From a virus: a stretch of DNA of 64,000 bases. Positions within the stretch are counted from its first letter, which is position 1. Each line of letters starts with the position of its first letter. The position numbers and the translations under genes are program-made. The stretch spans positions 1 through 64,000 of the IMG/VR virus record IMGVR_UViG_3300031251_000010. One strand, written 5' to 3'. Shown here piece after piece: positions 2,659-63,605 of this stretch. The notes under the pieces were generated by a model that worked only from the letters and a program-made list of their open reading frames with translations, was not told the DNA's origin and did no database searches.

Positions 2659-3672
2659 TTACCTTGACCTCTTATAGCGTTGCGGCAGAAGGACTGTGAT
2701 CTTGGCGTTCGGATCGGAATGCTTGACGCGTATGTGCGCGACCGTTTTTGGCGCTATTGCAGCCATGAACCGCTTGTCGAACCGCTTCCACACGGGCTCA
2801 CCGCTGGCGGCGAGGTCGTGCAGGAAGAAGTCGAGGATCTTAGATTGGCGAGCGATCTTGTAAAAGATGTTGTCTACTGGGTCATTTGATGCGGTGAGGG
2901 TCCGCTGCGTGGGGTCGGTGTCCACGAGTACGTAGCCGTCCTGGGGCGTAATCAGCGGGAGCTCCACCATGCGCCCGGTGTCGCCGTCCTCCACCCATGC
3001 CTTCCCCGGCGGCACGATGAACTGCGTGTAGGACACCAGATCGGCCCGGTTGGCGAGCGCTACCGTGCCCTCTCCGTTGCCGTCGTACTGCGCTGCGTTG
3101 GCCGGGTTGTTCTGCCACGTCGCCCACAACGAGGGCTTGCTGTAGTACGGCTTCTGCGCGAGCCACGTCAGGTTCCAGGTGGCGAAGTTGTTCCCGAACG
3201 CGACCGGGTCGCGCTTCACCGAGCCCGTAACGGTTTTCGCGGGCCGGACCCTGATCCAGCGCCAGCCCGAGAACCGCGTGTAGATCCCCAGCCAGCCGTC
3301 CCGTTCCTCGTCTTGGCCAGCCCACCAGCGGGACTCGGCCATCCGGTACTGGTACTCGTTGAACGGGATACCCTTGCCGCCGATCTTCACGCCGAGGTTG
3401 ATCTCACGCTTCAGGATGTTGACGCGTTCAACCGTGGTACCGAGCTCGTACGCACCCTCACTGAGGAGCAACTCGAACGGCCAGTGGTGCTCGCCCTCGA
3501 TTTCCTCCGCGAGGTGTACGCCCTGCCTGCCAGCGAGCACACCACCGTGAAGGTCGTAGCGGTATCCATCCGGTGTGATGTAAAGGATGCGAGTCTCCAG
3601 CCCCTGCAAGCGAGGTGGCAGCTTCTCCCATACGTCGTAGGCCGCCATCTCCGCCTGCCGGATGAACCTCAC
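2659..3672 (-). CDS. minor tail protein (distal tail-like)
   Basis: 337 aa directly downstream of tape measure, 4-bp overlap. Confidence 0.8.
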   Translation of the reverse strand: MRFIRQAEMAAYDVWEKLPPRLQGLETRILYITPDGYRYDLHGGVLAGRQGVHLAEEIEGEHHWPFELLLSEGAYELGTTVERVNILKREINLGVKIGGKGIPFNEYQYRMAESRWWAGQDEERDGWLGIYTRFSGWRWIRVRPAKTVTGSVKRDPVAFGNNFATWNLTWLAQKPYYSKPSLWATWQNNPANAAQYDGNGEGTVALANRADLVSYTQFIVPPGKAWVEDGDTGRMVELPLITPQDGYVLVDTDPTQRTLTASNDPVDNIFYKIARQSKILDFFLHDLAASGEPVWKRFDKRFMAAIAPKTVAHIRVKHSDPNAKITVLLPQRYKRSR

Positions 3673-26469: not shown

Positions 26470-26859
26470 TCATGGTTTGATCACCGCGATTATGTGCTTT
26501 CCGGGCATCATGTCGGCCAGCTCGGTCAACGCGTTGATGTGGGTGTGGGCGTCGTCGGGGAGCGGCGTCACGGCCAGCTCCGCGCCATAGGTTCCCTCCA
26601 GACCGGCGAGGTACGCCATGTATGCGTCGGGGTCCGGGAGGTCGGGTACGGCGATGTCGGCGAGCAGCGGATGCTGTTCCAGCAGGGCTGGTTTGCACTC
26701 ACCTGCGGCACGAGGCAACTGATGGGTGAACAGGTTGTCGCCGGTCATGAAGTTGAGGAGTTCGTAGATGTCGCCGATATCGTGCGCGAGCATCCGGTCG
26801 GTGGTGACGGTCAAGATGGCGCCGAGGCCGAACATGCGTGGGGCGGGTGCGGTCATCAC
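26470..26859 (-). CDS. conserved phage protein, paralog of 51285..51662
   Basis: LLNFMTG...HQLPRA...C...LLEQHP motif shared with 51285..51662. Confidence 0.6.
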   Translation of the reverse strand: MMTAPAPRMFGLGAILTVTTDRMLAHDIGDIYELLNFMTGDNLFTHQLPRAAGECKPALLEQHPLLADIAVPDLPDPDAYMAYLAGLEGTYGAELAVTPLPDDAHTHINALTELADMMPGKHIIAVIKP

Positions 26860-27632
26860 TTACTCCAATGTCGTTGGTACATATTGACCAGCCACGCGTT
26901 GATCCGATCCCAGTCCGGCCCATCCGGCAGAGACGGGATCGATGCGTGGTACTCAAGGCTCACGGCCAGAGTGTCAAGCCAGCGCTTCACCTCAGGGAGC
27001 GGGATCTCGCCGCGCCGAACGCCCAGCAGTGCATCGCGATGCGCTTGGAGCATGGGTAGGTGCACCCTTCGCTCAGTGAGGAGTTGGATGCCTTGCATAC
27101 CGAGGCGCAGTGCGTGATACGCGTATTTGGTGTCGAACCCGTACTGCTCGATGAGTTCGGGCCGGTTGGTGTGCCGGTGGTGAGTGCCCTCCAGGCCCTC
27201 CCGCTGAGAGTTCAAGTAACCAAGGAACTTCCGTCCGGCCTGCTTCGTGACGAACAGCTCTGACGCTGCCTGGAGCTCGGCTCCAAGTTGAGTTTTCACG
27301 GTCAGCTCTTCGTCGGGTATCCAAAGCATCAGCAGCACCGAGGGGTTACCGTCTGCGGCCAGCCGCGTCCACTTCCGCAGGCTATAGATGCACAGATCGA
27401 GATCGCCGGGGCCGGAGCGGGCGCCGTCCGGCTGGGTGCGGTAGATGTACTGCTCGAACTTCTCCAAACCGATTACGGCTTCGGGTGGTTCGATGCAGAT
27501 GCCCATTTCGTCGCGGTCGTCGGCGCCGGTCGTGACACCGTGCAGACCGGAGCCGACCTGCCCGCGCAGGATCGTGTTCTCGTCCGCGATAACGCGGTGC
27601 CGCTCCGTCCCGTGGCGCGCTTCGGTACTCAC
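26856..27632 (-). CDS. Pol-beta superfamily nucleotidyltransferase (RlaP-like)
   Basis: GSGLHG-x5-DDRD, GNPS, YGFDTKYAYHALRL motifs. Confidence 0.8.
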   Translation of the reverse strand: MSTEARHGTERHRVIADENTILRGQVGSGLHGVTTGADDRDEMGICIEPPEAVIGLEKFEQYIYRTQPDGARSGPGDLDLCIYSLRKWTRLAADGNPSVLLMLWIPDEELTVKTQLGAELQAASELFVTKQAGRKFLGYLNSQREGLEGTHHRHTNRPELIEQYGFDTKYAYHALRLGMQGIQLLTERRVHLPMLQAHRDALLGVRRGEIPLPEVKRWLDTLAVSLEYHASIPSLPDGPDWDRINAWLVNMYQRHWSK

Positions 27633-27902: not shown

Positions 27903-28123
27903 GGCCGCATTCCTCCGGTTCGTTTGTCGATGATTTTCTGGATGAGTTGGGGGCTGCATTTCACGGCGGTGGCGAGGGTGGCGTGGGTCCACTTCTCGCG
28001 CTCGGCCGCCCAGAGTTCACGTACGAGCCGGTCGCGCTGGCTCCGGTGCCGACTGGCAGAGTCGCGGTCTTCCCCGGCCAGCCGGTGGTGCTCGCGGGCT
28101 TGCTGTGCCCTCGGGTCCATCAA
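27899..28123 (-). CDS. small HTH DNA-binding protein
   Basis: WTHATLATAVKCSPQLIQKI HTH-like segment. Confidence 0.55.
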   Translation of the reverse strand: MMDPRAQQAREHHRLAGEDRDSASRHRSQRDRLVRELWAAEREKWTHATLATAVKCSPQLIQKIIDKRTGGMRP

Positions 28124-28551
28124 CGCCCCCCGATGCCTACGCGGCGGCGGGATATCTTCTCGATCGCGGTGATGGCTTCCTCGCCTGGGTCTTCGATCTC
28201 GGAGCTGCCGTGCTCCGCTGCGTCACGGCCGGACTCGAACAACGGCACTGGGCTCACGTACTCGAATGCCGCCTGTACGTCCTCGGAAGACAGCGCGCCC
28301 GTGACGGCCCCAATGCGTATCGCGAGTAGTTCCTCGCCGCCGTGGCAGCCGACCCAGCCCGCACACAGCCGGGCCGCCGCGTCGGCGGCGTCGGTCTGGT
28401 GGCACAGGAAGAGGCCGGTCGGCTGCTCCGAGGTTGGGGCGTCGTAGGCGATAAGCTTCTGGTACTCGGTGGCGTGCCACACGCCGCTGGGTACGTCCTC
28501 CCGGTAAGGGCACGACGCGCAGGGGCGCGGAGCAGGGCCACCCACGCTCAC
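28120..28551 (-). CDS. Cys-rich protein (DUF6283-like)
   Basis: PCASCPYR...F.CH...LCAGW motifs. Confidence 0.65.
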   Translation of the reverse strand: MSVGGPAPRPCASCPYREDVPSGVWHATEYQKLIAYDAPTSEQPTGLFLCHQTDAADAAARLCAGWVGCHGGEELLAIRIGAVTGALSSEDVQAAFEYVSPVPLFESGRDAAEHGSSEIEDPGEEAITAIEKISRRRVGIGGR

Positions 28552-28727: not shown

Positions 28728-30428
28728 CTACAGGTCGCCGCGCGCGAAGTCCGAGATGAGCTGCGGTACAGCGCTATCGAACCCGGACACGTCCAGCTGG
28801 CGCGGGTCCGTGGGATTAGCGATGGTCTGCCGACCGCCGGTCATCGCGACAACCATCAGGCTGGTATCCAGACCGAGCTTGTTCCGGTACTCGGTGAGCG
28901 CCTGGTGCGGATGGATGCTCCCGTACCAGGTTTCGTTGTCGGTGAGGATCACGATGGCGTCGTAGGAACGCTTCTGCGCCTTGGCCCACACCATCGGTAG
29001 CGCGCAGTCCGTGGCGCCCATGGGCAGGTCGCGGGTGTACCGGCACACGTCATCAAGGCGGCGACGCGGCGAGATGTCCAGCTCTGTAATACCGGGTGCG
29101 TTGAAGCTGCCACGAGAGCCTGCGGTGAATCCGATGATGTCGTGGCTGGGCTCCACGTTGGCGATCACCAGTGCGAGCGCGGCGGCGGCCTCGCGGCACG
29201 TGAGGGGCATCCCCGAGATGGCCGCGCACATGGAGCCGGAGATGTCCAGCGCCAGCAGGGTCCGCTTACCCGAGGGCTCGACGGCGCCGTAGGCGTTGTA
29301 GAACGCCGCATCCAGCGCGTCAACGATGCGCCGGTTCGGCGTCCAGGCGGACTCACCGCGCGCCGAGTGCCCGGAGGCGTAGGTGCGCTGCGCGACAAGG
29401 ACGTTGACCGGGTGGACGCGGCCCTTCCGTAGCCGCTCGGTGTCCTGGAGCTGCGCGGTGACCCGGCTGGCGAGCTGACCGTTCAGCACGCCGAGGCGGG
29501 TCAGGCGGGGCAGCTGTCGCATGAGGGCGGTCTGCGGTAGGCCGTGCTCGATCAGCGCTTCCCAGATCGCGGGCTCGGTGAGAGCCTTGTCGGGGAAAGC
29601 TTCCCACGGCAGGCCGTTGCCCCGGCGGATGATCGCCAGCCACTCCTTGGCGGTGGTGGCGCGCTGCGCGGCCTCGTAGTCCGCGATGATGGCGAGCGGG
29701 TGCCCGTCAGCAAGTTCCACATTGGGCAGCTTCGGTAGCGTGGGGTTGCGCTCTCCGGCCTTGAGCTGCTCCGGGGTGAGGAGCGGCTGCTTCCAGTTGT
29801 AGTCGTTCAGGCCCTTGCCGACAGCCCAGTTGAACGCCATGCGGCGGGCCGGGTCGGCGGTGCGGGGGCCACTGAGCCGGAGCATGTCGCGGTGGGTCCA
29901 GCCGTCGCGCTGCCGGTACTTGACCAGCTGGTAGGCGAGCCGGTCCACCGGCTTGTCCAGGTACCAGCTGGAGACGGCGCGCTTCATCGCCGGTCCCCAA
30001 CCCCGGAACTGCTCCATGTACTTGGTGAACAGGTACAGGTGGGTGGCGGTGCGCGCGACTCGGGGCAGCGCAGCTGCGGCGGCACGGCGGCCATCCACGT
30101 TCTCGGCGGCCGACGCAATCGCGAGCGCGAACAGGGCCGGGTTCTGCTTGGGGGCGCGTCCAGCCTCGGAGACCTCAACGATCTTCTGCACGAGGGTCAC
30201 GGGATCGGTTGCGGCGAGCCGGATCACGACATCGGCAGCGTCGCGGGTCAGATCCTCGGCGGAGGTGTAGTAGGTGCCGCCGGTAGTACCGAGCGTCAGG
30301 AACCGGTGCAGCCGGGTCCAGTCGTCGGCCTGGAAGGTGTAGCCCCCGGCGGCGTTCTTGACCTGGCGCGGGTCCGCCTTCTGGGACTGGGGGGTGCGCC
30401 GCGTGCTGATCGAGGATAGAACGTCCAC
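28728..30428 (-). CDS. rsr: Ro60 / TROVE-vWA RNA-binding protein (Rsr ortholog)
   Basis: NAAGGYTF, RFLTLGT.GGTYY, KYRQRDGWTHRD, ALMRQL, RVHPV TROVE motifs; vWA MIDAS DISGSM, TDCALPM, TDNET, SGFD. Confidence 0.95.
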   Translation of the reverse strand: MDVLSSISTRRTPQSQKADPRQVKNAAGGYTFQADDWTRLHRFLTLGTTGGTYYTSAEDLTRDAADVVIRLAATDPVTLVQKIVEVSEAGRAPKQNPALFALAIASAAENVDGRRAAAAALPRVARTATHLYLFTKYMEQFRGWGPAMKRAVSSWYLDKPVDRLAYQLVKYRQRDGWTHRDMLRLSGPRTADPARRMAFNWAVGKGLNDYNWKQPLLTPEQLKAGERNPTLPKLPNVELADGHPLAIIADYEAAQRATTAKEWLAIIRRGNGLPWEAFPDKALTEPAIWEALIEHGLPQTALMRQLPRLTRLGVLNGQLASRVTAQLQDTERLRKGRVHPVNVLVAQRTYASGHSARGESAWTPNRRIVDALDAAFYNAYGAVEPSGKRTLLALDISGSMCAAISGMPLTCREAAAALALVIANVEPSHDIIGFTAGSRGSFNAPGITELDISPRRRLDDVCRYTRDLPMGATDCALPMVWAKAQKRSYDAIVILTDNETWYGSIHPHQALTEYRNKLGLDTSLMVVAMTGGRQTIANPTDPRQLDVSGFDSAVPQLISDFARGDL

Positions 30429-30453
30429 CGTGTGCTCCTTGCTGGGTTAGGTA

Positions 30454-30528
30454 GCGCGGGCGTGTGAGTGACCGCCGGGGTTCATCCAGTTGCGAGGTTG
30501 GGGTAACCGACCGTCGTCCTGCTCGCGC
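30454..30528 (-). ncRNA. Y RNA-like unit 5 (short, no tRNA-like domain)
   Basis: conserved 5' GAGCAGGACG..GGTCGGTTA and 3' CCGG...CACACGCCC; terminal stem GCGCGAGC/GCCCGCGC. Confidence 0.6.
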
Positions 30529-30543
30529 CAAGGGGGTTCGGGT

Positions 30544-30664
30544 GATGTGGGCGTGTACGTGCTGACCGGGATTTCGCTTTACACCCGCACCGAGGCACGG
30601 GCGACAGGGGTCGAACCTGCATTAACCAATTGAGTGATAACCGACCGAGCGTCCTGCTCACATC
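30544..30664 (-). ncRNA. Y RNA (YrlA-like) unit 4
   Basis: same conserved ends; T-arm GCAGG-TTCGACC-CCTGT, closed acceptor-like stem, degenerate D-arm. Confidence 0.75.
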
Positions 30665-30699
30665 GAAAAGCTATGGAGTTATTGATGATTCGCGTAGGT

Positions 30700-30841
30700 G
30701 GTGTGGGCGTGTGATTGCTGACCGGGTTTTTAGGTGCTCTACCAAGCTGAGCTATACGGACGCACTACGCGCCCGCAGCTGGATTTGAACCAGCGACCAC
30801 CCGCTCCAGATGCGATAACCGACCTGCGTCCTGCTCACACC
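30700..30841 (-). ncRNA. Y RNA (YrlA-like) unit 3
   Basis: T-arm GCTGG-TTCAAAT-CCAGC, closed acceptor stem, then D-arm TAGCTCAGCTTGGTAGAGC. Confidence 0.85.
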
Positions 30842-30863
30842 GACTACTACGAAGCCTTGGGGG

Positions 30864-30999
30864 TGATGCGGGCGTGTGTGTGCTGACCGGGGTTAAGCGC
30901 TCTACCGACTGAGCTACAGCTGCCGAAACGGCTGACGGGACTCGAACCCGCGACCTCTCCATTAGCAAGTGGTAACCGACCTGCGTCCTGCTCGCATCA
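30864..30999 (-). ncRNA. Y RNA (YrlA-like) unit 2
   Basis: T-arm GCGGG-TTCGAGT-CCCGT, closed acceptor stem, then D-arm TAGCTCAGTCGGTAGAGC. Confidence 0.85.
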
Positions 31000-31022
31000 T
31001 CAAATGTGAAGTTGTATCCGGG

Positions 31023-31194
31023 GGATGGCGTGGGCGTGTGAGGTGCCTGCCGGCGTTGATCTTGGATCAATGCATTCGGCCGCTCTGCCACGTCCACCTG
31101 GTGAGCCCGAAGCTCTTACCCGGAGGACGGCGGGATTCGAACCCGCGATCTGATGATTTTCAGATAACCGACTCGCGTCCTGCTCACGCCATCC
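31023..31194 (-). ncRNA. Y RNA (YrlA-like) unit 1
   Basis: T-arm GCGGG-TTCGAAT-CCCGC, extended acceptor stem with TTCG-containing loop, Ser/Leu-type D-arm TGGCAGAGCGGCCGAATGCA; ends GGATGGCGTG/CACGCCATCC pair. Confidence 0.85.
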
Positions 31195-31217: not shown

Positions 31218-31248
31218 ACTATACCTCAGTAATGCCTGTTCAGGGCAT
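31218..31248 (-). promoter_or_regulatory. putative promoter of the Y RNA-Ro60 operon
   Basis: -10-like TATAGT (31218-31223, minus strand) about 25 bp upstream of unit 1; imperfect palindrome ATGCCTGTTCAGGGCAT just upstream. Confidence 0.45.
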
Positions 31249-31367: not shown

Positions 31368-31916
31368 TTACCGAACAAGCTCCGTGCAGATCGTAAACAT
31401 GCGGATGGGGTGTTGGTATCCGACGGGGCACATGTCAGCGGTCCTGGCGCCGAGGACCACCCTGGTCGGCCGGAAGCGACTCACAGCTGTGGCGTCGTCG
31501 CATGCCACGGCCCGTGTGGCGTCATCGGTGATGCTCAGGCAGTTTGAGCTGGTCCAGTTCAGGTCCAGGCATGCGGTCCATTCACCTGCGGCAGTGTTTC
31601 GGTAGTAGCGCCGGTCCACGTCGCGGACACAGTCTTTCGGCTCGATGACACGTTGCACGATCCGGTGGGTAGCGTCTGGAGCGTCGCACTTCGTCAGTTT
31701 CATCGCAGCATCGTGGCGCGGGCCGGTGATCTTGACGCATGCGCCCACCGGGGCGTCGTCCGCTCCTGCGGCTGTCGTGGTGGCAGGGGTGGGGAACTGT
31801 CCGGGGATCTGCGCGAAGTTGGAGTCGGCTTTCAGTGCTTCGGTGGGGGTCTCGCATCCCGATAGCGATAGCGCTAACACCGCAACACCGACCGCGAGGG
31901 CGCTTGCTCGCCTCAC
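31368..31916 (-). CDS. LppU-like lipoprotein
   Basis: lipobox LSGC; Cys-rich PVGACV...WTACLDLNW. Confidence 0.7.
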   Translation of the reverse strand: MRRASALAVGVAVLALSLSGCETPTEALKADSNFAQIPGQFPTPATTTAAGADDAPVGACVKITGPRHDAAMKLTKCDAPDATHRIVQRVIEPKDCVRDVDRRYYRNTAAGEWTACLDLNWTSSNCLSITDDATRAVACDDATAVSRFRPTRVVLGARTADMCPVGYQHPIRMFTICTELVR

Positions 31917-32422
31917 TTGGCGTCGGCCCTGAACGTCTCCACACTCATGACTTTCCATTGCCCATTGAGTCGATACATGCTGTACCGGACCCGCGCTCCG
32001 GTGTAATAGTACATATTCTCCGGTTTTGCGTTTTTCTGGTCCTCGAATTCGGTGTAGACGAACGCATCGTAGACGAGATCGCCGCGCGCAAGAATGCCGA
32101 AATCGGCAATATGCATTGGCCCGTGGTCCAGTATCTCCGACGCCATCTCGCGGACATACCCCGTTTTATAGAACGGGTTGAGGTGTTCTTCGGCTATGCC
32201 AGTCGATAGCGATTCAAGGCGTTTGAGGTCACCAGAATTCAATGCATCGACATATTGCTCGATCACCTGGCGTACTTCTGCATCGTATTTATCCGATGTG
32301 GTGCTGGGGTGCTGCATGCACAGAACATAGGTCAGCAGCGAGGCGATGGCAATCGTGGCTACCCAGGCCACTCCGACCACCGCCGCGCGCCGACTAAATC
32401 TCTCGCGAAGGTAAGTAATCAT
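31913..32422 (-). CDS. membrane-anchored protein, candidate immunity protein
   Basis: N-terminal TM, NTF2-like pattern (YVDALNSGD...NGQWKV); coupled to upstream secreted protein. Confidence 0.5.
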   Translation of the reverse strand: MITYLRERFSRRAAVVGVAWVATIAIASLLTYVLCMQHPSTTSDKYDAEVRQVIEQYVDALNSGDLKRLESLSTGIAEEHLNPFYKTGYVREMASEILDHGPMHIADFGILARGDLVYDAFVYTEFEDQKNAKPENMYYYTGARVRYSMYRLNGQWKVMSVETFRADAK

Positions 32423-33885
32423 GCGGTAGGCCCCTTTTCAAGGCACTGGAGGGTGCTTGAATAGGACGGGACCGCCCAAATTCCCTCAACGAACTCTGTT
32501 ACCTGGAATCCTTCTTTGAACCGGCGAAAATAGTTCGACTGACCGCCGATGGATTGGTTGAGAGCGATATCCATGGGAAGCACTTGGCGGTCATCGACTG
32601 CTGTTCCACCCCATGTTAGATCCGGCATGTGGCCCGGCGCTTTGCCTTTAAAGGCATCTTCACCAAAGATTGCTATCGCCCTCTTGATATCGTCTTTTCG
32701 GCGGGTGTCCATGCCAGCGGTCGTACGTTTGACTACTATGCCGCCCTTTTCCTCATTCTTCTCAATCAGTTTATTTCCGCCGTTTATATAGTCCTTCATG
32801 CCGTCTATCTGGAATTGTGATGGGTTCTTGACATCCTTGGGGTAGCAGATCGGAACCCTGCCCTTGCAACCCGGCTCCCCGGTCTTGCACTCCTCGGAAA
32901 AGTTATCCATCCAAGGATCGATGTAGTCATTGCACACCTGCTTGGCAGCCGGGTTAGGTATCAGCTTGCACAGCGGATTCTGCGGCTTACGATCCGGTGG
33001 GCAGTCTGTACATTCAAGCGGCTCAATCGGCAAGCGGCCGGGAGAACGCTCACCGCCCGGTCCTAGTGTTCCGCCGCCGCCCTTGGGCTTGGGCAGCACC
33101 TCGTCGGCCGCGTCCCCAACCTGCTGAACGACGTCAGCGACCTGCCCGGCAGTCTCGGTCAGCTGGTCCATCTGCTGCGACATCGCCTGGCAGCGCTGCT
33201 GCCGCTGCTGGTCACCCTGGTCCTGCTGGTCCTGCTGGTCCTGCTGGTCTTGCTGCTCGGGCTGGTTCTGCTGCTGACTTTGTTGCGGCGACTGCTGCTG
33301 CCCCTGCTGTGGCGACTGCTGACCCTGCTGAGGTGAACTCTGCTGCGGCGCTTGATAATCAGGGTTCGGCTTACCCGGCCCCTGCGTGTACCCCGGCGCG
33401 GTCGAATAATCGGGAATCTGGGTACCGTGAGCGGGCTGATCCCAGCCCTGTTGGGGCTGTTGTCCGCCTTGCTGACCTCCGGCTTGTTGCCCGGCCTGCG
33501 GCGCGCCGGAATTGTAAATTGAGATCCCCGAATTCTGGTCCAGGGGCGGTAAGTTGTTGCCGCCCTGGTAATCCGGCATCGACGGCGGTTGCGCGGGCGG
33601 TTGGAACTGCGAGCCCCCGCCGTCGGTCATGCCGCCCGTAGGCCCAGGCGGGCCAGTCGGCTCCGCTCCCACCGTCGCCAACGTGGAGAACCCGCTGCCC
33701 GGCGCCGTGTGCAGAGTCGCGACCTCGACCGTGCCCGCCCCCACTGCCAGGACTGCGACCGCAACTAGTGCCGCACGCACCCGCTTCCTTGCGCGTTGAA
33801 CCTGTGGCTTGTTTGGCGGGTGTTGCAGTACTCGACACCAGTGTGATTTGCACTGGTTGCCTGGGGAGGGGTTGCCAGAGGCCAT
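32419..33885 (-). CDS. secreted protein with Gln/Pro-rich linker and putative HNH-like C-terminal toxin domain
   Basis: hydrophobic N-terminal segment, Q-rich linker, C-terminal GHMPDLTWGG...LNQSIGGQ. Confidence 0.55.
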   Translation of the reverse strand: MASGNPSPGNQCKSHWCRVLQHPPNKPQVQRARKRVRAALVAVAVLAVGAGTVEVATLHTAPGSGFSTLATVGAEPTGPPGPTGGMTDGGGSQFQPPAQPPSMPDYQGGNNLPPLDQNSGISIYNSGAPQAGQQAGGQQGGQQPQQGWDQPAHGTQIPDYSTAPGYTQGPGKPNPDYQAPQQSSPQQGQQSPQQGQQQSPQQSQQQNQPEQQDQQDQQDQQDQGDQQRQQRCQAMSQQMDQLTETAGQVADVVQQVGDAADEVLPKPKGGGGTLGPGGERSPGRLPIEPLECTDCPPDRKPQNPLCKLIPNPAAKQVCNDYIDPWMDNFSEECKTGEPGCKGRVPICYPKDVKNPSQFQIDGMKDYINGGNKLIEKNEEKGGIVVKRTTAGMDTRRKDDIKRAIAIFGEDAFKGKAPGHMPDLTWGGTAVDDRQVLPMDIALNQSIGGQSNYFRRFKEGFQVTEFVEGIWAVPSYSSTLQCLEKGPTA

Positions 33886-34121: not shown

Positions 34122-34448
34122 GTGACTGAGCAGCTGGAAGTTGATCTTGATGCTCTGGGGAAGTTATCCCCTGAGTTGCAAGGCTTGGCAACGAAGTTGA
34201 CCACGGCCGCCAATAGCCACTCCGGCGTGGAGTCGGGCGGTTCGCCCGCGACGACTGCCATCCGCGCCTTGGTGGAGAAGTCGATACCCGGCGTACAGCG
34301 CACGTTGGCGGCGCGGCTGAATACCGTGGCCGATTTGTCCCAGCAAGCCAAGACGCAGTTCGGCGACACCGAGGCACACATACAGCAGACCATCAGATCC
34401 GCGGCGGGGCTGGCGCTCACACGCGATGTCCCGATCGGGGATCACTGA
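34122..34448 (+). CDS. WXG100-like / type VII secretion target
   Basis: ~108 aa helical protein, LEVDLDAL start and FGDTE end; TGATG-coupled to a large gene. Confidence 0.6.
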   Translation: MTEQLEVDLDALGKLSPELQGLATKLTTAANSHSGVESGGSPATTAIRALVEKSIPGVQRTLAARLNTVADLSQQAKTQFGDTEAHIQQTIRSAAGLALTRDVPIGDH

Positions 34449-36703
34449 TGTCCGCCCGCTCGTACAAGCTCCTGCTGTCCACGCCCACGAAGGCGAACAT
34501 CGAACTGATGCGCCAGACCATGGTGGCCGCCGTAGAGATCCAGCAGACCGGGGCCGACTACAAGAACGCAGTAGAGCGCCCGGACGGCCACCCGTGGGAA
34601 GGCGCGACGGCGGACGCCGCCCGCGAGACTGCCGGCAGCGACGAGAAGGTGTTCTTCGGGACCGGGCAATCGATCCTCAACGACGCCCCGAAGGTGATCG
34701 ACACCCTTTCCCAGGCGTTGGAGCACCAGAACGCCACCATCGCTCTGCATGACGATGCGATCAGCAACCACTACAAGGTGGCCGATGATCTGACCGTCGA
34801 GTGGGAGGTGCCGAAGGGGGCGTCCGAGGAGAACATCGCCAAGGGCAAGCAGTACGCCGCGAACCTGCAAAAGATGCTGCAAGCCAAGTACGACGCGTGG
34901 GCGGCAGCCGATCTACAGGCGGCCAACGAGGTCAAGGCCATGGACCTCGATACCCTGCTGGCGCCCGTGGGTGGGTTGGACGCCGCGCGCGGAAACGAGG
35001 ATGGTTCCGCGCTGCAAGGCGGCTACATCGACCCCGAGCTGATCAAGCGGGTACGGGCCGCCGGGTTCCTGTCGCCCGAGCAGGTGGCCGCGCTGGCTGA
35101 CGGCAAGACGGTGACCATTCCGTCCAACCAGATGCAGTACCTGTATCAGCTGTCCCGCTCGCTGGACGGTAAGACACCGGGCGAGGTCAACGCGTTCCTC
35201 AATGGAATCAAGAGCCCTGAGGACCGTACGGCGGTCAAGGACGCGCTGGCGATGGTGTCCAACCGGAACATCCGCTCCGGGGTGGACAACAAAGCCGGGG
35301 TCACCGAGGCCACACGCGCCAACTTCATCCCGGCGGCGGGCTCGGTGTCGAATCTGCCCGATGGGCTTCGCGAAGCCCTGACGCGACCCGACCGGGTGGG
35401 TACCTCGTTCGACAACGCGGCACGGGGGTACGGCGGACCGCAGACCGAACTACGTGGCGTCGGTGATCTCCAAGATGTCGCCAAGATCTTCAACGGCGTC
35501 ACGCCGGGATACCTCAACGGATCGGACGCCACGCAGGCGATGCTCGGCGCCGCGTCCGACTACTCAAACGCCGAGATCCACACCTGGGACAAGGACTGGA
35601 AAAACCTCAGCGGCAGTATCACCTCCGATGCCCATGGCGACTTCAAATCCGCCGTAGCCGACATCTTCCAGGGCGCCAGCAGCGACCACGTGGACATCGC
35701 CGACATGGCCAAGAAAGCCGCCGACCTGCCCAGCTCTACCGACTCACTTCTGAGCGCGATCAACGACAACCGCTGGAACGGGCAGGACGCCAAACTCGCC
35801 GACGTATTCAACTGGGCCGCAGACGATCCCGGCAACCCGCTCGCCCAGCAGGTCGCCAACGCCGAGGGTCATTTCCTCGGAAACCCGGACAACCAGGAGA
35901 CGCTGCGGGGCATGCCTGGACCGCACATGAACTTAGGTGAGGGCGATTCATTCGCCGAGGCGAACCCCCATCTGGCCCAGAGCGCGGCCCGGCTCGACGC
36001 CCCGCACATCGCCGAGCTCAATGGGGCACAGAACCCCAACGCGCCCGAGATCAAGGCGTTCGACTTGCCCGATCAGGGCAAGAATCTGATGGCTAACCTC
36101 GACCGCAATGAGGACGCAGCTCGGATCATCAACGGCGGTGCGTACCACGGGTACATGGAGAACCTCGCCGACGCAGCGCAAATGCCCACGGACACCCCGC
36201 AAGAGCGTGCCACCCAGGATCACGCCTTCCAGGTGGGCGGCCAGATACAGCATGGAATGCTCGACGGCGCGGCCGACGCTGGCACAGAGCCGCCGGAGAA
36301 ATCGATCAAGAAGCTCGGCGAATGGTTCAGCGGTCAGGCGGGAGTAGACAAGCCCCTCGGGCTGCTGGAAGGTGTCGACAAGGCTGTGCACGGAGATGCC
36401 AACCCCGCCGACGCGGCGCGTTCGATGGTCTCCACTGGTGATTACGGATTCAGCACGACCGACAGCTACAAGGCGATACTCGATGGCCTCATTCAAGCGA
36501 ACCCGGACATTGCCAGCAGCGAGGGAGTGAAGGACTACATCACCGGCGGCCACCTCGATCCGTTCAAGATCGCTGCGGACCCCAACGCCGAGACCGCCCT
36601 GAAAGCTGCCCTGGATAGCAATAACTTCAACACCGACCACTGGGCAATCCAGGAGTCGTTGGGAAACAACGGGGTTCATCAACGATGGCAACCACACGGG
36701 TAG
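34448..36703 (+). CDS. putative ESX-secreted polymorphic toxin
   Basis: 751 aa with N-terminal WEG(ATADAA) WXG motif and YKVADDLTV; between WXG100-like gene and lipoprotein. Confidence 0.65.
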   Translation: MSARSYKLLLSTPTKANIELMRQTMVAAVEIQQTGADYKNAVERPDGHPWEGATADAARETAGSDEKVFFGTGQSILNDAPKVIDTLSQALEHQNATIALHDDAISNHYKVADDLTVEWEVPKGASEENIAKGKQYAANLQKMLQAKYDAWAAADLQAANEVKAMDLDTLLAPVGGLDAARGNEDGSALQGGYIDPELIKRVRAAGFLSPEQVAALADGKTVTIPSNQMQYLYQLSRSLDGKTPGEVNAFLNGIKSPEDRTAVKDALAMVSNRNIRSGVDNKAGVTEATRANFIPAAGSVSNLPDGLREALTRPDRVGTSFDNAARGYGGPQTELRGVGDLQDVAKIFNGVTPGYLNGSDATQAMLGAASDYSNAEIHTWDKDWKNLSGSITSDAHGDFKSAVADIFQGASSDHVDIADMAKKAADLPSSTDSLLSAINDNRWNGQDAKLADVFNWAADDPGNPLAQQVANAEGHFLGNPDNQETLRGMPGPHMNLGEGDSFAEANPHLAQSAARLDAPHIAELNGAQNPNAPEIKAFDLPDQGKNLMANLDRNEDAARIINGGAYHGYMENLADAAQMPTDTPQERATQDHAFQVGGQIQHGMLDGAADAGTEPPEKSIKKLGEWFSGQAGVDKPLGLLEGVDKAVHGDANPADAARSMVSTGDYGFSTTDSYKAILDGLIQANPDIASSEGVKDYITGGHLDPFKIAADPNAETALKAALDSNNFNTDHWAIQESLGNNGVHQRWQPHG

Positions 36704-61024: not shown

Positions 61025-61444
61025 ATGAGCGCTATGAGTACGTTGTATTCGGTCCCAAACGAGACTTTGTCCCAGACGGTGGCCCGCCGAATCCGGGGGC
61101 TGCTCGGGGAGAAGCGCATCTCTCAAGCGGCCTTCGCCAGGCTGCTTGGAACCAACGTCGCCAGCATGTCTCGGCGACTTTCAGGCGATCACCCTATTGA
61201 TCTCGCCGAGGTTGAAAAGTACGCAGCCGCCCTAGGGGTTTCCCCAGAGCGGCTGTTGACTGGTCGGCCTGATGGGAATGACCCCGGTGGCCCAGGTGTG
61301 CGCCCGAAGGGATTCGAACCCCTAACCTTCTGGTTAGGGGTTCCCAAGTCGCCTGCCTCTTCCGAGGGAGCGATCACGGATCTCGGCGAGTATCGCAGGG
61401 CGCGTCGCAACACACCAACGCCGCAAGAACCCGCAGTAGCGTGA
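61025..61444 (+). CDS. immunity repressor (XRE HTH) containing attP
   Basis: ISQAAFARLLG....SMSRRLSG; divergent from Cro; C-terminus ...PAVA. Confidence 0.8.
   Translation: MSAMSTLYSVPNETLSQTVARRIRGLLGEKRISQAAFARLLGTNVASMSRRLSGDHPIDLAEVEKYAAALGVSPERLLTGRPDGNDPGGPGVRPKGFEPLTFWLGVPKSPASSEGAITDLGEYRRARRNTPTPQEPAVA
61298..61343. other. attP core (3' half of a tRNA, probably Arg) with 12-bp inverted repeat
   Basis: reverse complement CAGAAGGTTAGGGGTTCGAATCCCTTCGGGCGCAC is a tRNA variable loop/T-arm/acceptor 3' strand; GAACCCCTAACC-TTCT-GGTTAGGGGTTC. Confidence 0.8.
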
Positions 61445-62624: not shown

Positions 62625-63605
62625 GTGATAACTGGGCGAAGTACCTCAGGACCGGCGCCGCTACCAATACCGGCCGAATGGCAGCCGCTCATCGAGCGTT
62701 ACCGGCTGTTCCTCCAGGCAGCCGGGCGACCGAAGACAACAATCGGGACCCGGATGGCCCATATGAGCCGGATAGCCAGATGCTTAGGAGCCTCACCCGA
62801 GGAGGTGACACACGATTTACTCGAGGTGTGGTTCGCCCACCAGAGGCAGTGGGGGCAAGAAACTCGGCGCGGCTACCGCGCATCGACTACTGGCTTCTTC
62901 GGTTGGGCCCATGCGGCAGGCCACATCCCGATCGACCCTTCCACGAAACTGCCATCGGTGAAGGCGGGGCTACCTACACCGAAGCCCGCCCCCGACCGCA
63001 TCTGGAAGGAAGCTCTCGTCGCGGCCGACGCACGGACCACGGTGATGCTGTACCTGGCTTGCGAGGCAGGGCTCCGACGAGGCGAAGTCGCCCAAGTCCA
63101 CACCGATGACCTCCGCGAGGGATTCTCTGGGTATCAGCTGCTCGTGCACGGCAAGGGCGCCAAGGATCGCCTCATCCCGATCTCGGACGAGATCGCGGCG
63201 ATGATCCTCGCCGGGCCGGGCGGGCACACCCCCGGCCGCGGAGACCGCGGATTCCTGTTCCCCGGCGCGGACGACGGCCACCTCTCTGCACGTTGGGTGG
63301 GGAAGCTTTGCGCGGTAGCGATGCCGGGGGTTTGGACGATGCACAAGCTGCGGCACCGTTTCGCCACCCAGGCCTACCAGCGGACCCGGAACCTCCGCGC
63401 GCTCCAGCAGCTCCTCGGTCACGCGAGTGTCGCCACGACGCAGCTCTATACGGCGGTCGATGACGACGAGATGCGGGAGACGATGCTGGCCGCCGCTAAT
63501 AGCGGCCCGCGCCCTTGGACGCGGTGGGCCAGTTCAGCGGCGGCAGTTGTGGTTGCGGCCAGTGCCGCGACACTAGCCAGCCACGCGGTGTCGCTAGTAC
63601 CTTAA
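62625..63605 (+). CDS. int: tyrosine integrase
   Basis: GLRRGE (R), HGKG.K.R (K), HKLRH (HxxR), LLGH, TQLY (Y); short, no obvious arm-binding domain. Confidence 0.92.
   Translation: MITGRSTSGPAPLPIPAEWQPLIERYRLFLQAAGRPKTTIGTRMAHMSRIARCLGASPEEVTHDLLEVWFAHQRQWGQETRRGYRASTTGFFGWAHAAGHIPIDPSTKLPSVKAGLPTPKPAPDRIWKEALVAADARTTVMLYLACEAGLRRGEVAQVHTDDLREGFSGYQLLVHGKGAKDRLIPISDEIAAMILAGPGGHTPGRGDRGFLFPGADDGHLSARWVGKLCAVAMPGVWTMHKLRHRFATQAYQRTRNLRALQQLLGHASVATTQLYTAVDDDEMRETMLAAANSGPRPWTRWASSAAAVVVAASAATLASHAVSLVP

Follow-up and report, generated by a model that had tools for sequence, protein, structure and literature searches.

A temperate mycobacterial phage carries five Y RNA genes in tandem on the minus strand (31194-30454), directly upstream of rsr, the gene for its Ro60 orthologue, and the five units set different tRNA-like modules on one scaffold. 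We read the array as a tandem YrlA/YrlB-type leader of the phage rsr gene, diversified by recombination and proposed to load its RNAs onto Rsr, and we give this reading a probability of about 0.8. YrlA/YrlB Y RNAs are a known kind of RNA; what looks new here is the diversity of payloads and their turnover.

Five units on one scaffold

The window is the whole stretch of DNA analyzed (64 kb). The scaffold pattern GAGCAGGACG-N5-6-CGGTTA occurs in it exactly five times, always on the minus strand (30504-31185; expectation in shuffles = 0), a repeat search of the window recovered the same five copies, and searching the complete phage genome (75.8 kb) gave no additional copy. Five copies of the 3′ motif ACACGCCCRC lie in the window, one per unit (0.83 expected). 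With unit limits set by the terminal stems, the units in transcription order are:

31023..31194, minus strand: unit 1 (U1), 172 nt
30864..30999 (approximate), minus strand: unit 2 (U2), 136 nt
30700..30841, minus strand: unit 3 (U3), 142 nt
30544..30664, minus strand: unit 4 (U4), 121 nt, YrlB-like
30454..30529, minus strand: unit 5 (U5), ~76 nt, scaffold only

An earlier note on this DNA had listed these lengths correctly (75 nt for U5, here 76) as a series shrinking along the array; the order is not strictly decreasing, because U2 is shorter than U3.

The scaffold consists of a terminal stem of 6-10 bp, a conserved internal loop in which 5′ GAGCAGGAC faces 3′ CACACGCC, and a top helix ending in GGUUA. 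The 5′ and 3′ ends of the units pair in a 6-bp terminal stem (GAUGCG/CGCAUC, GGUGUG/CACACC, and others), with compensatory changes between units. In all five units the Ro-site motif is GAGCAGGACG, two positions off GNCGAA; the proposed Ro contact near the 5′ end, GNCGAAN0-1G, is absent in its published form and only the variant GCAGGACG is present. The motif reads GCCGGAC in Sparky and GGCCGAA in cluster C phages and Forza, and from its sequence GCAGGACG looks like a lineage variant of the putative Ro-site motif.

U2 is of the canonical mycobacterial YrlA type, with a V hairpin bearing an anticodon-like loop, a T arm, a closed acceptor (7 bp, UUCG loop), and a class I D arm; chromosomal Mycobacteriaceae YrlAs match it. 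U3, the exchangeable "slot 3" of the comparisons below, belongs to the class I YrlA type and has a closed acceptor hairpin of 9 bp. The class I D arms previously ascribed to both are present:

30916-30898, minus strand: U2 class I D arm
30754-30735, minus strand: U3 class I D arm

U2 and U3 are 70% identical over 74 nt in the repeat search and are ordinary class I YrlA paralogues. Their leanings towards Thr (U2) and Pro (U3) are weak, with margins of 0-10 on the core and a calibrated precision of about 0.7, and appear only in alignments that take in the V hairpin; an origin of U2 from tRNA-Thr and of U3 from tRNA-Pro was downgraded on these core margins.

U4 carries a T arm and a closed acceptor without a D arm, and in U5 a loop of ~25 nt replaces the tRNA-like module, with T arm and D arm both absent, which agrees with the first description of these two units:

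30620-30604, minus strand: U4 T arm
30603-30582, minus strand: U4 closed acceptor hairpin, 9 bp

The minimum-free-energy fold of U4 is the proposed fold, and that of U5 is stem, internal loop, stem, loop. Because U4 is without a D arm and U5 without either arm, they are YrlB-like or minimal Y RNAs and not YrlA. Across relatives U4 is 95-98% conserved and the two units together 95-99%, with orthologues in phages whose Ro is 75% identical. A U4 orthologue is found in prophiT37-1 and GD43A-5, and a minimal unit lies immediately upstream of rsr in these two and in Sparky and QBert. It is plausible that U5 is a "scaffold-only gatekeeper".

Folding and RNA-family scores

Sixteen class I units share a consensus fold of terminal stem, top helix, T arm, 7-bp acceptor, and D stem, in which 96.9% of cells are paired, compared with 35-50% when the partners are slid; helices 1 and 2 are 97-98% paired, and compensatory changes occur at 16 of the 30 pairs, including 7/7 acceptor pairs. 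The order T arm, closed acceptor stem-loop, D arm, with tRNA-invariant nucleotides, is present in U1-U3. The tRNA-like folds lie 0-4.4 kcal/mol from the minimum free energy, and unconstrained single-sequence minimum-free-energy folding gave no cloverleaf-like fold for U1-U3.

Rfam returned no match in the window at gathering thresholds. For YrlA (RF02553), with a gathering score of 69 bits, U2 scored 36.2 bits (E = 5e-6, full-length alignment) and U3 36.8 bits (E = 3.5e-6), and U1, U4, and U5 were unmatched. Chromosomal Mycobacteriaceae YrlAs (38-50 bits) and those of Sparky and QBert (36-37 bits) also score <69, so this threshold excludes the whole mycobacterial branch, and the scores of U2 and U3 are comparable to those of validated-type mycobacterial and phage YrlAs. 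No true tRNA gene was found in the phage by ARAGORN on the window (0 genes) or by the Rfam tRNA search genome-wide (23.8 bits); the best Rfam tRNA score in the window, 28.9 bits, is below the 29-bit cut-off and comes from a reading that requires a 41-nt insertion.

A tRNA-Ser-type D arm in unit 1

U1 is built as scaffold, V hairpin, T arm, extended closed acceptor hairpin, D arm, extra hairpin, and scaffold:

31164-31149, minus strand: U1 V hairpin, TCTGA..TCAGA
31146-31130, minus strand: U1 T arm
31129-31091, minus strand: U1 extended closed acceptor hairpin, 39 nt
31090-31071, minus strand: U1 class II D arm, TGGCAGAGCGGCCGAATGCA
31070-31056, minus strand: U1 extra hairpin after the D arm, TTGATC..GATCAA

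The class II D arm and the extended acceptor hairpin claimed for this unit were both confirmed. The D arm starts at U8 and has the 3-bp D stem and the 11-nt loop of GAGCGGYYNAA type of a tRNA-Ser-type class II body. Its 19-mer has exact matches in 22 unrelated viral contigs, each of them falling on positions 8-26 of a class II tRNA (tRNA-Ser in 21/22, an 88-nt class II "Cys" in 1/22), and it is also exact at positions 8-26 of tRNA-Ser(UGA) in four of five Mycobacteriaceae genomes. The best tRNA match of U1 is Ser(UGA) (score 73 vs. 48 for the runner-up, z = 6.4), and the U1 acceptor strands GGUGGACG/CGUCCUCC-G resemble GGAGACG/CGUCUCC-G of that tRNA. Two extra hairpins had also been described, and both exist; the first, however, a hairpin of 5-6 bp ending 2 nt before the T stem, stands where U2, U3, and the chromosomal YrlAs have their V arm, which leaves the acceptor extension and the hairpin after the D arm as the extra elements.

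With the D arm masked, Ser was no longer the top-scoring tRNA for U1. Nearly all of the tRNA-type signal comes from the D arm, and whole-tRNA capture is unsupported because T arm and acceptor alone do not indicate the same tRNA; intact capture of whole tRNAs was rejected, since the isotype preference vanishes once the D arm is masked. The proposal that the inserts were captured or evolved independently from different tRNAs is partly supported: D arms are of distinct types, but the signal is confined to them, U2 and U3 are paralogues, and the U1 type recurs in distant phages. Class II units are found in 12 of 77 phage Ro loci, and U1 is not a private recent capture because such units recur in seven other, distant phage Ro loci. 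Outside its own phage group, blastn found no homologue of U1 except for the scaffold. Four distinct orthologue sequences of U1 gave no covariation for the tRNA-like fold, and RNAalifold prefers another fold; the argument for the tRNA-like fold is therefore one of homology and of a constrained fold 3.7 kcal/mol above the minimum free energy.

Sequence and genes around the array

The following features flank the array:

31232..31248, no strand assigned: perfect 6-bp hairpin ATGCCCTGAACAGGCAT (minus-strand reading), just upstream of the array
31218..31223, minus strand: TATAGT, a -10-like hexamer, ~24 nt upstream of U1
30435..30440, minus strand: AAGGAG, rsr ribosome-binding site read from sequence, 13 nt after U5
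28728..30428, minus strand: rsr/Ro60 orthologue, 566 aa, with TROVE and Ro60 vWA domains, 25 nt past the array end
26856..27632, minus strand: RlaP-family nucleotidyltransferase (Pfam PF10127, 2.2e-33), in the same gene string downstream of rsr

Relatives retain the block 31260-31195 at 92-97% conservation and diverge further upstream. TATAGT is kept in relatives, and in Sparky, prophiGD43A-5, and QBert, too, palindromes next to a TATAGT-like box stand ahead of the arrays. A sigma-70 consensus scan gave no full -35/-10 promoter upstream of the array, and we therefore go no further than to infer that TATAGT is a candidate promoter of the array and rsr. The hairpin at 31232..31248, on the plus strand a terminator-like match with a run of T behind it, may serve as an insulator or operator. 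Within the array, neither a promoter/terminator scan nor sequence inspection found an internal promoter or terminator, and the array forms the leader of the predicted rsr transcript.

The rsr product matches PF05731 (5.8e-50) and PF25045 (4.9e-57) and is 67% identical to M. smegmatis Rsr; it is the presumed protein partner of all five RNAs. Lying 25 nt from rsr on the same strand, the array is well inside the 4 kb from a Ro60/TROVE gene that is expected of YrlA-type RNAs. RlaP adds one or two nucleotides to damaged RNA 3′ ends (bioRxiv 10.64898/2025.12.29.696909), and its presence in the gene string suggests an RNA-repair or counter-defence context. RtcB is absent from the phage.

Unit number and payloads in related arrays

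Phage and prophage Ro arrays contain 1-7 units, and 4-7 in a clade of M. abscessus prophages, compared with 1-2 in the chromosomal loci examined. Relatives that are otherwise 90-100% identical across the array differ in their payloads. In L005 the slot-3 insert has been replaced (48% identity vs. 86-100% in the flanks) and carries a Gln-type D arm, and in L006 it is chimeric (76% identity, against the same flanks). Acceptor hairpins reach 50-77% identity where the rest of the units is 90-100% identical, which points to patchwise exchange; one hairpin, CAGCC(A/G)CGAAAGTGGTTG, is common to U2 of L003, L005, and L006 and to U3 of prophiT37-1 and GD43A-5. The D-arm types clearly differ among arrays: Ser class II here, Gln type in L005, and Glu type in L286. 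This agrees with the view that tRNA-like inserts of non-homologous sequence sit in a duplicated scaffold, borne out here by exact scaffold copies, distinct D-arm types, and the slot-3 replacement. Descent of all inserts from one YrlA by drift, with unit number and order invariant among phages, had been named as the outcome that would speak against it; unit number varies from 1 to 7, and slot 3 has been replaced.

The suggested polarity, by contrast, is not general. The arrays of prophiT37-1 and GD43A-5 begin with a non-tRNA-like unit, those of cluster C phages are ordered minimal-YrlA-minimal or minimal-Gln type-class I, and gain or loss of units occurs inside the array as well as at its ends. 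We rejected a general size gradient on these differing orders. The Ro proteins P0002-P0007 are 72-77% identical. A search for related loci with the Ro protein alone found none in genome contigs and one extra locus in metagenome contigs, and a loose scaffold pattern gave mostly chance matches in genome contigs.

Proposed mechanism and alternatives

We propose that the array is co-transcribed with rsr and that the precursor would be cut into separate RNAs, as with M. smegmatis YrlA and YrlB, each then loaded onto phage Rsr through the shared stem. None of the sequencing runs that contain the stretch is catalogued as RNA, and four candidate runs yielded assembled contigs of a relative. The modules, namely a circularly permuted tRNA-like module with a Ser-type class II D arm in U1, class I modules in U2 and U3, a T arm with closed acceptor in U4, and a bare loop in U5, would each tether Rsr to, or gate it for, a different tRNA-binding partner or an exonuclease such as PNPase. 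Such gating fits an operon for RNA surveillance, repair, or counter-defence in which RlaP is also encoded. Diversification would proceed by recombination between units and between phages, in which the T core, the D core, and the conserved halves of the scaffold would supply the homology arms; swaps would involve entire inserts, acceptor hairpins, or stretches bearing the D arm, and units would also be gained or lost.

The best-placed alternative, which we nevertheless consider unlikely, is that the units form an isoacceptor-specific panel of decoys or sensors, each module mimicking one tRNA and titrating or sensing a tRNA-specific host factor (a defence tRNase, a TA toxin, or an aminoacyl-tRNA synthetase), with the factor or its product handed to Rsr, PNPase, or RlaP and an arms race driving payload turnover. 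The identifiable, distinct tRNA-type D arms on one scaffold, the speed with which near-identical phages exchange acceptor hairpins and slot-3 inserts, the expansion to as many as seven units in phages and prophages against one or two in chromosomes, the 3′-end RNA repair enzyme RlaP in the same gene string, and a phage without true tRNA genes all agree with such a panel. Recombination without selection, however, can account for the turnover, T arm and acceptor have no isotype specificity, and the units would mimic the substrates of anticodon nucleases poorly, because their anticodon loops are absent or degenerate. Extended to phage Ro60 loci at large, the idea would make them exchangeable panels of type-specific tRNA mimics (Ser, Gln, Glu, class I, T-only, and bare) reshuffled in an arms race, a speculation that we hold to be doubtful. 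Each mimic would then recruit or titrate a different host factor, such as a defence tRNase, toxin, synthetase, or processing enzyme; U1, for example, might be opened by RNase P, receive CCA, and be recognized by SerRS, which ignores the anticodon.

Simple duplication and drift would derive all five units from one YrlA, their differences being decay or neutral change. The scaffolds are clearly paralogous, U2 and U3 are similar over 74 nt, and U4-like and U5-like units resemble progressive reductions. Yet the exact 19-nt tRNA-Ser D arm is implausible by drift from TAGCTCAGTCGGTAGAGC, slot-3 inserts are non-homologous between phages whose flanks are 86-100% identical, and the conservation of U4 and U5 with their orthologues is unlike decay; we regard this improbable explanation as largely refuted. 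It is more improbable still that the tRNA-like elements act in cis, controlling transcription, translation, or mRNA stability of rsr instead of serving as trans-acting Y RNAs. A gap of 13 nt separates the array from the rsr ribosome-binding site, and the failure to find an internal promoter or terminator would suit a leader of this kind; but every unit is closed by its own terminal stem with covariation between units, five copies of the Ro site would be superfluous, and the homologous M. smegmatis leader is processed into Rsr-bound RNAs (PMC4201824). That the array is a decayed phage tRNA cluster read across junctions is hardly credible: tandem tRNAs can imitate the T-then-D order (PMC4201824), and Sparky and Sham have real tRNA genes just upstream of their Y RNAs, but the tRNA searches of the window stayed at zero or below cut-off, every T-D pair lies inside the Ro scaffold, the closed acceptor is kept intact by compensatory changes, and conservation in relatives is strong.

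Comparison with known Y RNAs

[quoted passage not shown] Like the phage array, YrlA and YrlB lie directly upstream of rsr on the same strand, with a scaffold of similar style (…CGGUUA, …CACACGCCC). YrlA shares with U2 a V hairpin (the "V" arm named in Chen et al. 2014, RNA 20:1715; PMC4201824), a T arm, a 7-bp closed acceptor, and a class I D arm, and U2 is closely similar to the published YrlA probe sequences (PMC4201824); YrlB, like U4, has only the T arm. M. smegmatis has two units vs. five in the phage, which adds the class II Ser-type, second class I, and scaffold-only types, reads GCAGGACG in place of GNCGAA at the Ro site, is phage-borne, and exchanges payloads between strains. Salmonella Typhimurium YrlA (RF02553) resembles the phage units in setting a permuted tRNA-like domain (T arm, closed acceptor, D arm) on a Ro-binding stem, but its model is distant in sequence (36-37 bits vs. 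a gathering score of 69), and its RNAs lie 3′ of rsr in the RtcR-controlled rtcBA operon, whereas the phage array is upstream of rsr. Next to Salmonella YrlA, arrays of more than two units and a class II D arm are undescribed in the accessible literature; reviews or the supplements of Chen 2014 may mention them.

YrlA folds as a tRNA-like L in a crystal structure, and this work led to the prediction of a tRNA-binding effector with some sequence specificity in its reading of the T/D elbow (bioRxiv 10.1101/312249). The binding partner of the tRNA-like domain in bacterial Y RNAs has been a question since 2014, and the panels offer a ready-made comparative experiment, with varied D arms, T-arm-only, and bare versions on one Ro scaffold; close relatives that differ at a single slot make the job of the tRNA-like part easier to test. 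If the mimic panels are real, they give the effector function of this domain a concrete, testable form. The arrays also touch on its origin, from one primordial dimeric tRNA (the "dimeric tRNA origin" model of Sim & Wolin 2018, as cited in bioRxiv 10.1101/312249) or by more than one derivation from tRNAs; the presence of Ser-, Gln-, and Glu-type D arms speaks for the latter or for re-templating. Circularly permuted tRNA genes of red algae and an archaeon have the T arm 5′ of the D arm and a loop-closed acceptor, as the phage units do, and the diversity of tRNA types matched by the phage D arms is what one would expect had modules arisen, or been re-templated, from tRNAs more than once. Unlike those genes, the phage units show no sign of processing to functional tRNAs, have the anticodon arm replaced by, or reduced beside, the Ro stem, and carry a clear tRNA-type signal only in the D-arm segment.

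Among phages, a Ro60 gene closely preceded by one to three Y RNAs occurs in mycobacteriophage ET08 and cluster C (Chen 2014) and in Thermus phage phiLo, whose Ro60 binds Yrl1, Yrl2, and host PNPase (PMC12135203). The present array differs in having five units, heterogeneous D-arm types, and signs of cassette exchange, and phiLo Yrl1 and Yrl2 are described as stem-bulge-stem RNAs, not as tRNA-type panels. In deposited phage genomes, units of the kind described here are mis-annotated as tRNA genes.

Anatomy of the Y RNA array

The temperate phage genome is complete (75.8 kb, with direct terminal repeats), the window taking in 64 kb of it. Among deposited genomes it stands closest to two Mycobacterium abscessus prophages, prophiT37-1 and prophiGD43A-5. 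The Ro gene is immediately preceded by five copies of one scaffold:

31194-30454, minus strand: Y RNA array, units 1 to 5 in transcription order
28728-30428, minus strand: rsr, Ro60 orthologue (566 aa, TROVE and vWA)

The scaffold motif GAGCAGGACG-N5-6-CGGTTA occurs five times in the window against 0 expected, and ACACGCCCRC also five times, once per unit, against 0.83 expected; a repeat search agrees, and no further scaffold copy was found in the whole phage genome. Delimited by their terminal stems, the units measure 172, 136, 142, 121, and 76 nt, which bears out the lengths in the earlier note, and each motif quoted there was found in its place. The order is not strictly decreasing, since 136 nt precedes 142 nt. 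ARAGORN found no tRNA gene in the window, and Rfam at gathering thresholds returned no match there; an E-value search gave matches of units 2 and 3 to YrlA, a known bacterial Y RNA, at 36-37 bits (E about 5e-6). The missing gathering score is uninformative here because chromosomal mycobacterial YrlAs likewise fall under it.

We aligned 16 class I units (named for their tRNA D-arm type): those of prophiT37-1 and prophiGD43A-5, unit 1 of phage Sparky, and units 2 and 3 from the phage under study and from its relatives. RNAalifold recovered five helices:

Helices recovered by RNAalifold in the 16 class I units
Terminal stem: 6 bp
Top helix: GGUCGG with CCGGUC
T stem: 5 bp, 7-nt loop
Closed acceptor: 7 bp
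D stem: 4 bp

Across this alignment, 96.9% of cells are paired, against 35-50% with slid partners, the covariation score is 0.415 (slid partners: 0.07-0.11), and 16 of 30 pairs, all seven acceptor pairs among them, show compensatory change. Constraining the fold to the T, D, and top helices costs 0-4.4 kcal/mol relative to the minimum free energy, and in units 4 and 5 the proposed fold is itself the minimum-free-energy fold. On these energies and the pair covariation, each unit is a circularly permuted tRNA-like module, or a reduced version of one, set on a common stem, the same architecture as that published for YrlA and YrlB (PMC4201824; bioRxiv 10.1101/312249).

D arms of different tRNA types

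To calibrate the isotype classifier, 133 cores of phage tRNAs were matched to the host set, giving a top-1 accuracy of 59% and a precision of about 0.87 at margins >=13 and about 0.7 at margins 4-8. Solid assignments were obtained for unit 1 (Ser, margin 20-27) and for unit 3 of another phage Ro locus, L286 (Glu, margin 28), and a fair one for unit 3 of the close relative L005 (Gln, margin 10, both top matches Gln). Units 2 and 3 of the window were weakly assigned to Thr and Pro, mainly through alignments taking in the V hairpin, which precedes the T arm and whose 7-8-nt loops in these units resemble relic anticodon loops. The preference disappeared when the D arm was masked and was reproduced by the D arm by itself. 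Of the earlier proposal that the inserts came from different tRNAs, the robust part is thus that the D-arm segments differ in tRNA type; the data do not demonstrate capture of entire tRNAs, because masking the D arm removes the preference.

Two deposited tRNAs overlap such units: unit 2 of prophiGD43A-5 (L007:1750-1828, MW584167) is called tRNA-Thr(tgt) by ARAGORN and in its GenBank record, and a 62-nt tRNA-Ser(cga) of Streptomyces phage Sham (L262:1592-1653, ON645339) overlaps a Y RNA unit upstream of Ro. Both are probably mis-called, the V hairpin having been taken for an anticodon arm.

The D-arm 19-mer of unit 1, TGGCAGAGCGGCCGAATGC, is exact in 27 IMG/VR contigs, five being close relatives of the phage; in the other 22 it belongs to a class II tRNA, at positions 8-26 (21 tRNA-Ser and one 88-nt "Cys"). 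Of five Mycobacteriaceae genomes, four carry it unchanged in their chromosomal tRNA-Ser(UGA), and the fifth differs by a single mismatch. In permutation-aware alignment to the complete 54-tRNA host set and 146 phage tRNAs, unit 1 scored 73 with Ser(UGA) (next tRNA 48, z 6.4), and its best eight matches overall were all Ser. Its acceptor hairpin is 39 nt long, and an additional 6-bp hairpin lies 3' of the D arm. Scaffold excepted, blastn found no homologues of unit 1 outside the phage group. Unit 1 is nevertheless not unique in kind: 12 of 77 phage Ro loci (five relatives and seven others) have a class II D arm that follows a T arm and lies outside any ARAGORN tRNA, and in two loci (L290 and L293) a hairpin comes after it, as in unit 1.

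Insert exchange and unit number in relatives

Six close relatives (L002-L006 and L268; Ro 92-96% identical) keep the same unit order and number (five), and array identity to the window is 90-100% nearly throughout, except in the acceptor hairpins and the insert of unit 3. The acceptor hairpin is 54-77% identical in unit 1 among these relatives and 50-56% in unit 2 of three of them. At the third position, L005 carries another module, its D arm being Gln-type (48% identical), and L006 keeps the V hairpin with new T, acceptor, and D segments (76%); L286 joins a V hairpin of this third-position type to a D arm of Glu type. Unit 2 of L003, L005, and L006 and unit 3 of prophiT37-1 and prophiGD43A-5 have the acceptor hairpin CAGCC(A/G)CGAAAGTGGTTG in common, and modules resembling the Gln-type one of L005 precede Ro in Streptomyces phages and a Myrnavirus.

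Unit number is 1-2 in ten chromosomal Mycobacteriaceae loci, 2 in Sparky, about 3 in QBert and ScoobyDoobyDoo, and 5 in the window's phage group. Unit gain or loss in related prophages, raised in the earlier note, was confirmed in the M. abscessus prophage clade, which has 4-7 units: a first unit that is not tRNA-like is present in some members and absent from others, as is an internal Pro-like unit. M. abscessus-type prophages from IMG/VR (L274-L282, L304, and L321; Ro all 75% identical to the query) have 4, 5, 6, or 7. Nearest Ro, the YrlB-like and the minimal unit are kept across both prophage clades. A general size polarity finds no support in the arrays of related phages. The pattern fits recombination, for which the conserved scaffold and the T and D cores could provide homology arms; drift does not fit the exchange of inserts and hairpins or the gain and loss of units.

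Real tRNA genes stand on the same strand directly 5' of the Y RNAs and Ro in Sparky (L008, 3201-3759: Ser, Pro, Trp, Tyr) and Sham (119-1239: Pro, Asp, Ser, Val), and may be relevant to whether the modules arose from, or were re-templated on, tRNAs.

Already known are YrlA and YrlB Y RNAs (mycobacteriophages included), their mimicry of tRNA, the variability of their acceptor stems, and the proposal that they originate from tRNA. In the literature examined, of incomplete coverage, we found neither class II (Ser-type), Gln-type, or Glu-type D arms on a Ro scaffold, nor slot-wise payload exchange between near-identical phages, nor arrays of 4-7 units; any of these may have been mentioned before. 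The array makes directly testable by comparison both what the partner of the tRNA-like domain is and whether that domain had one origin or many.

Gene neighborhood and proposed mechanism

Three genes lie downstream of rsr:

28120-28551, minus strand: DUF6283
26856-27632, minus strand: RlaP nucleotidyltransferase, same gene string as rsr
26470-26859, minus strand: DUF7736

RlaP repairs damaged RNA 3' ends. Because RlaP is in the gene string, and the entire phage has neither the RNA ligase RtcB nor a true tRNA gene, the setting is most likely RNA surveillance, repair, or counter-defence.

In M. smegmatis, YrlA and YrlB are cut from a single precursor upstream of rsr and are bound by Rsr (PMC4201824), and the Ro60 of phage phiLo binds host PNPase as well as two Y RNAs (PMC12135203). 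By analogy with these systems, and beside the anatomy, covariation, rsr linkage, D-arm types, and exchange obtained directly, we infer four steps. The array and rsr would share one transcript, which would be processed to five RNAs; the shared stem would load each onto the phage Rsr, and the differing modules would give tRNA-binding proteins or exonucleases different surfaces to contact. The rsr ribosome-binding site is 13 nt 3' of unit 5, and the other end of the array is adjoined by:

31218-31248: TATAGT box (conserved) and hairpin

In four phages that otherwise differ (window 31232-31248; L007 about 1555-1580; L008 about 2960-2985, reverse strand; L009 about 2045-2075), a short perfect palindrome stands next to a TATAGT- or TACAGT-like box ahead of the Y RNA array, an arrangement that may be a common operator or promoter architecture.

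A three-gene string without Pfam matches (31368-33885, minus strand) adjoins the array 5' end, its place being taken in prophiT37-1 and prophiGD43A-5 by a BrnT-like toxin-antitoxin pair; a 751-aa protein with EspA-like TPR repeats (PF23275) is encoded at 34448-36703 (plus strand). A 31-nt stretch at 61298-61328 (minus strand) is the exact 3' end (T arm and acceptor) of Mycobacteriaceae tRNA-Arg(ACG), 1.3 kb from a tyrosine integrase gene (62625-63605, plus strand), and is likely the attP core for integration into tRNA-Arg.
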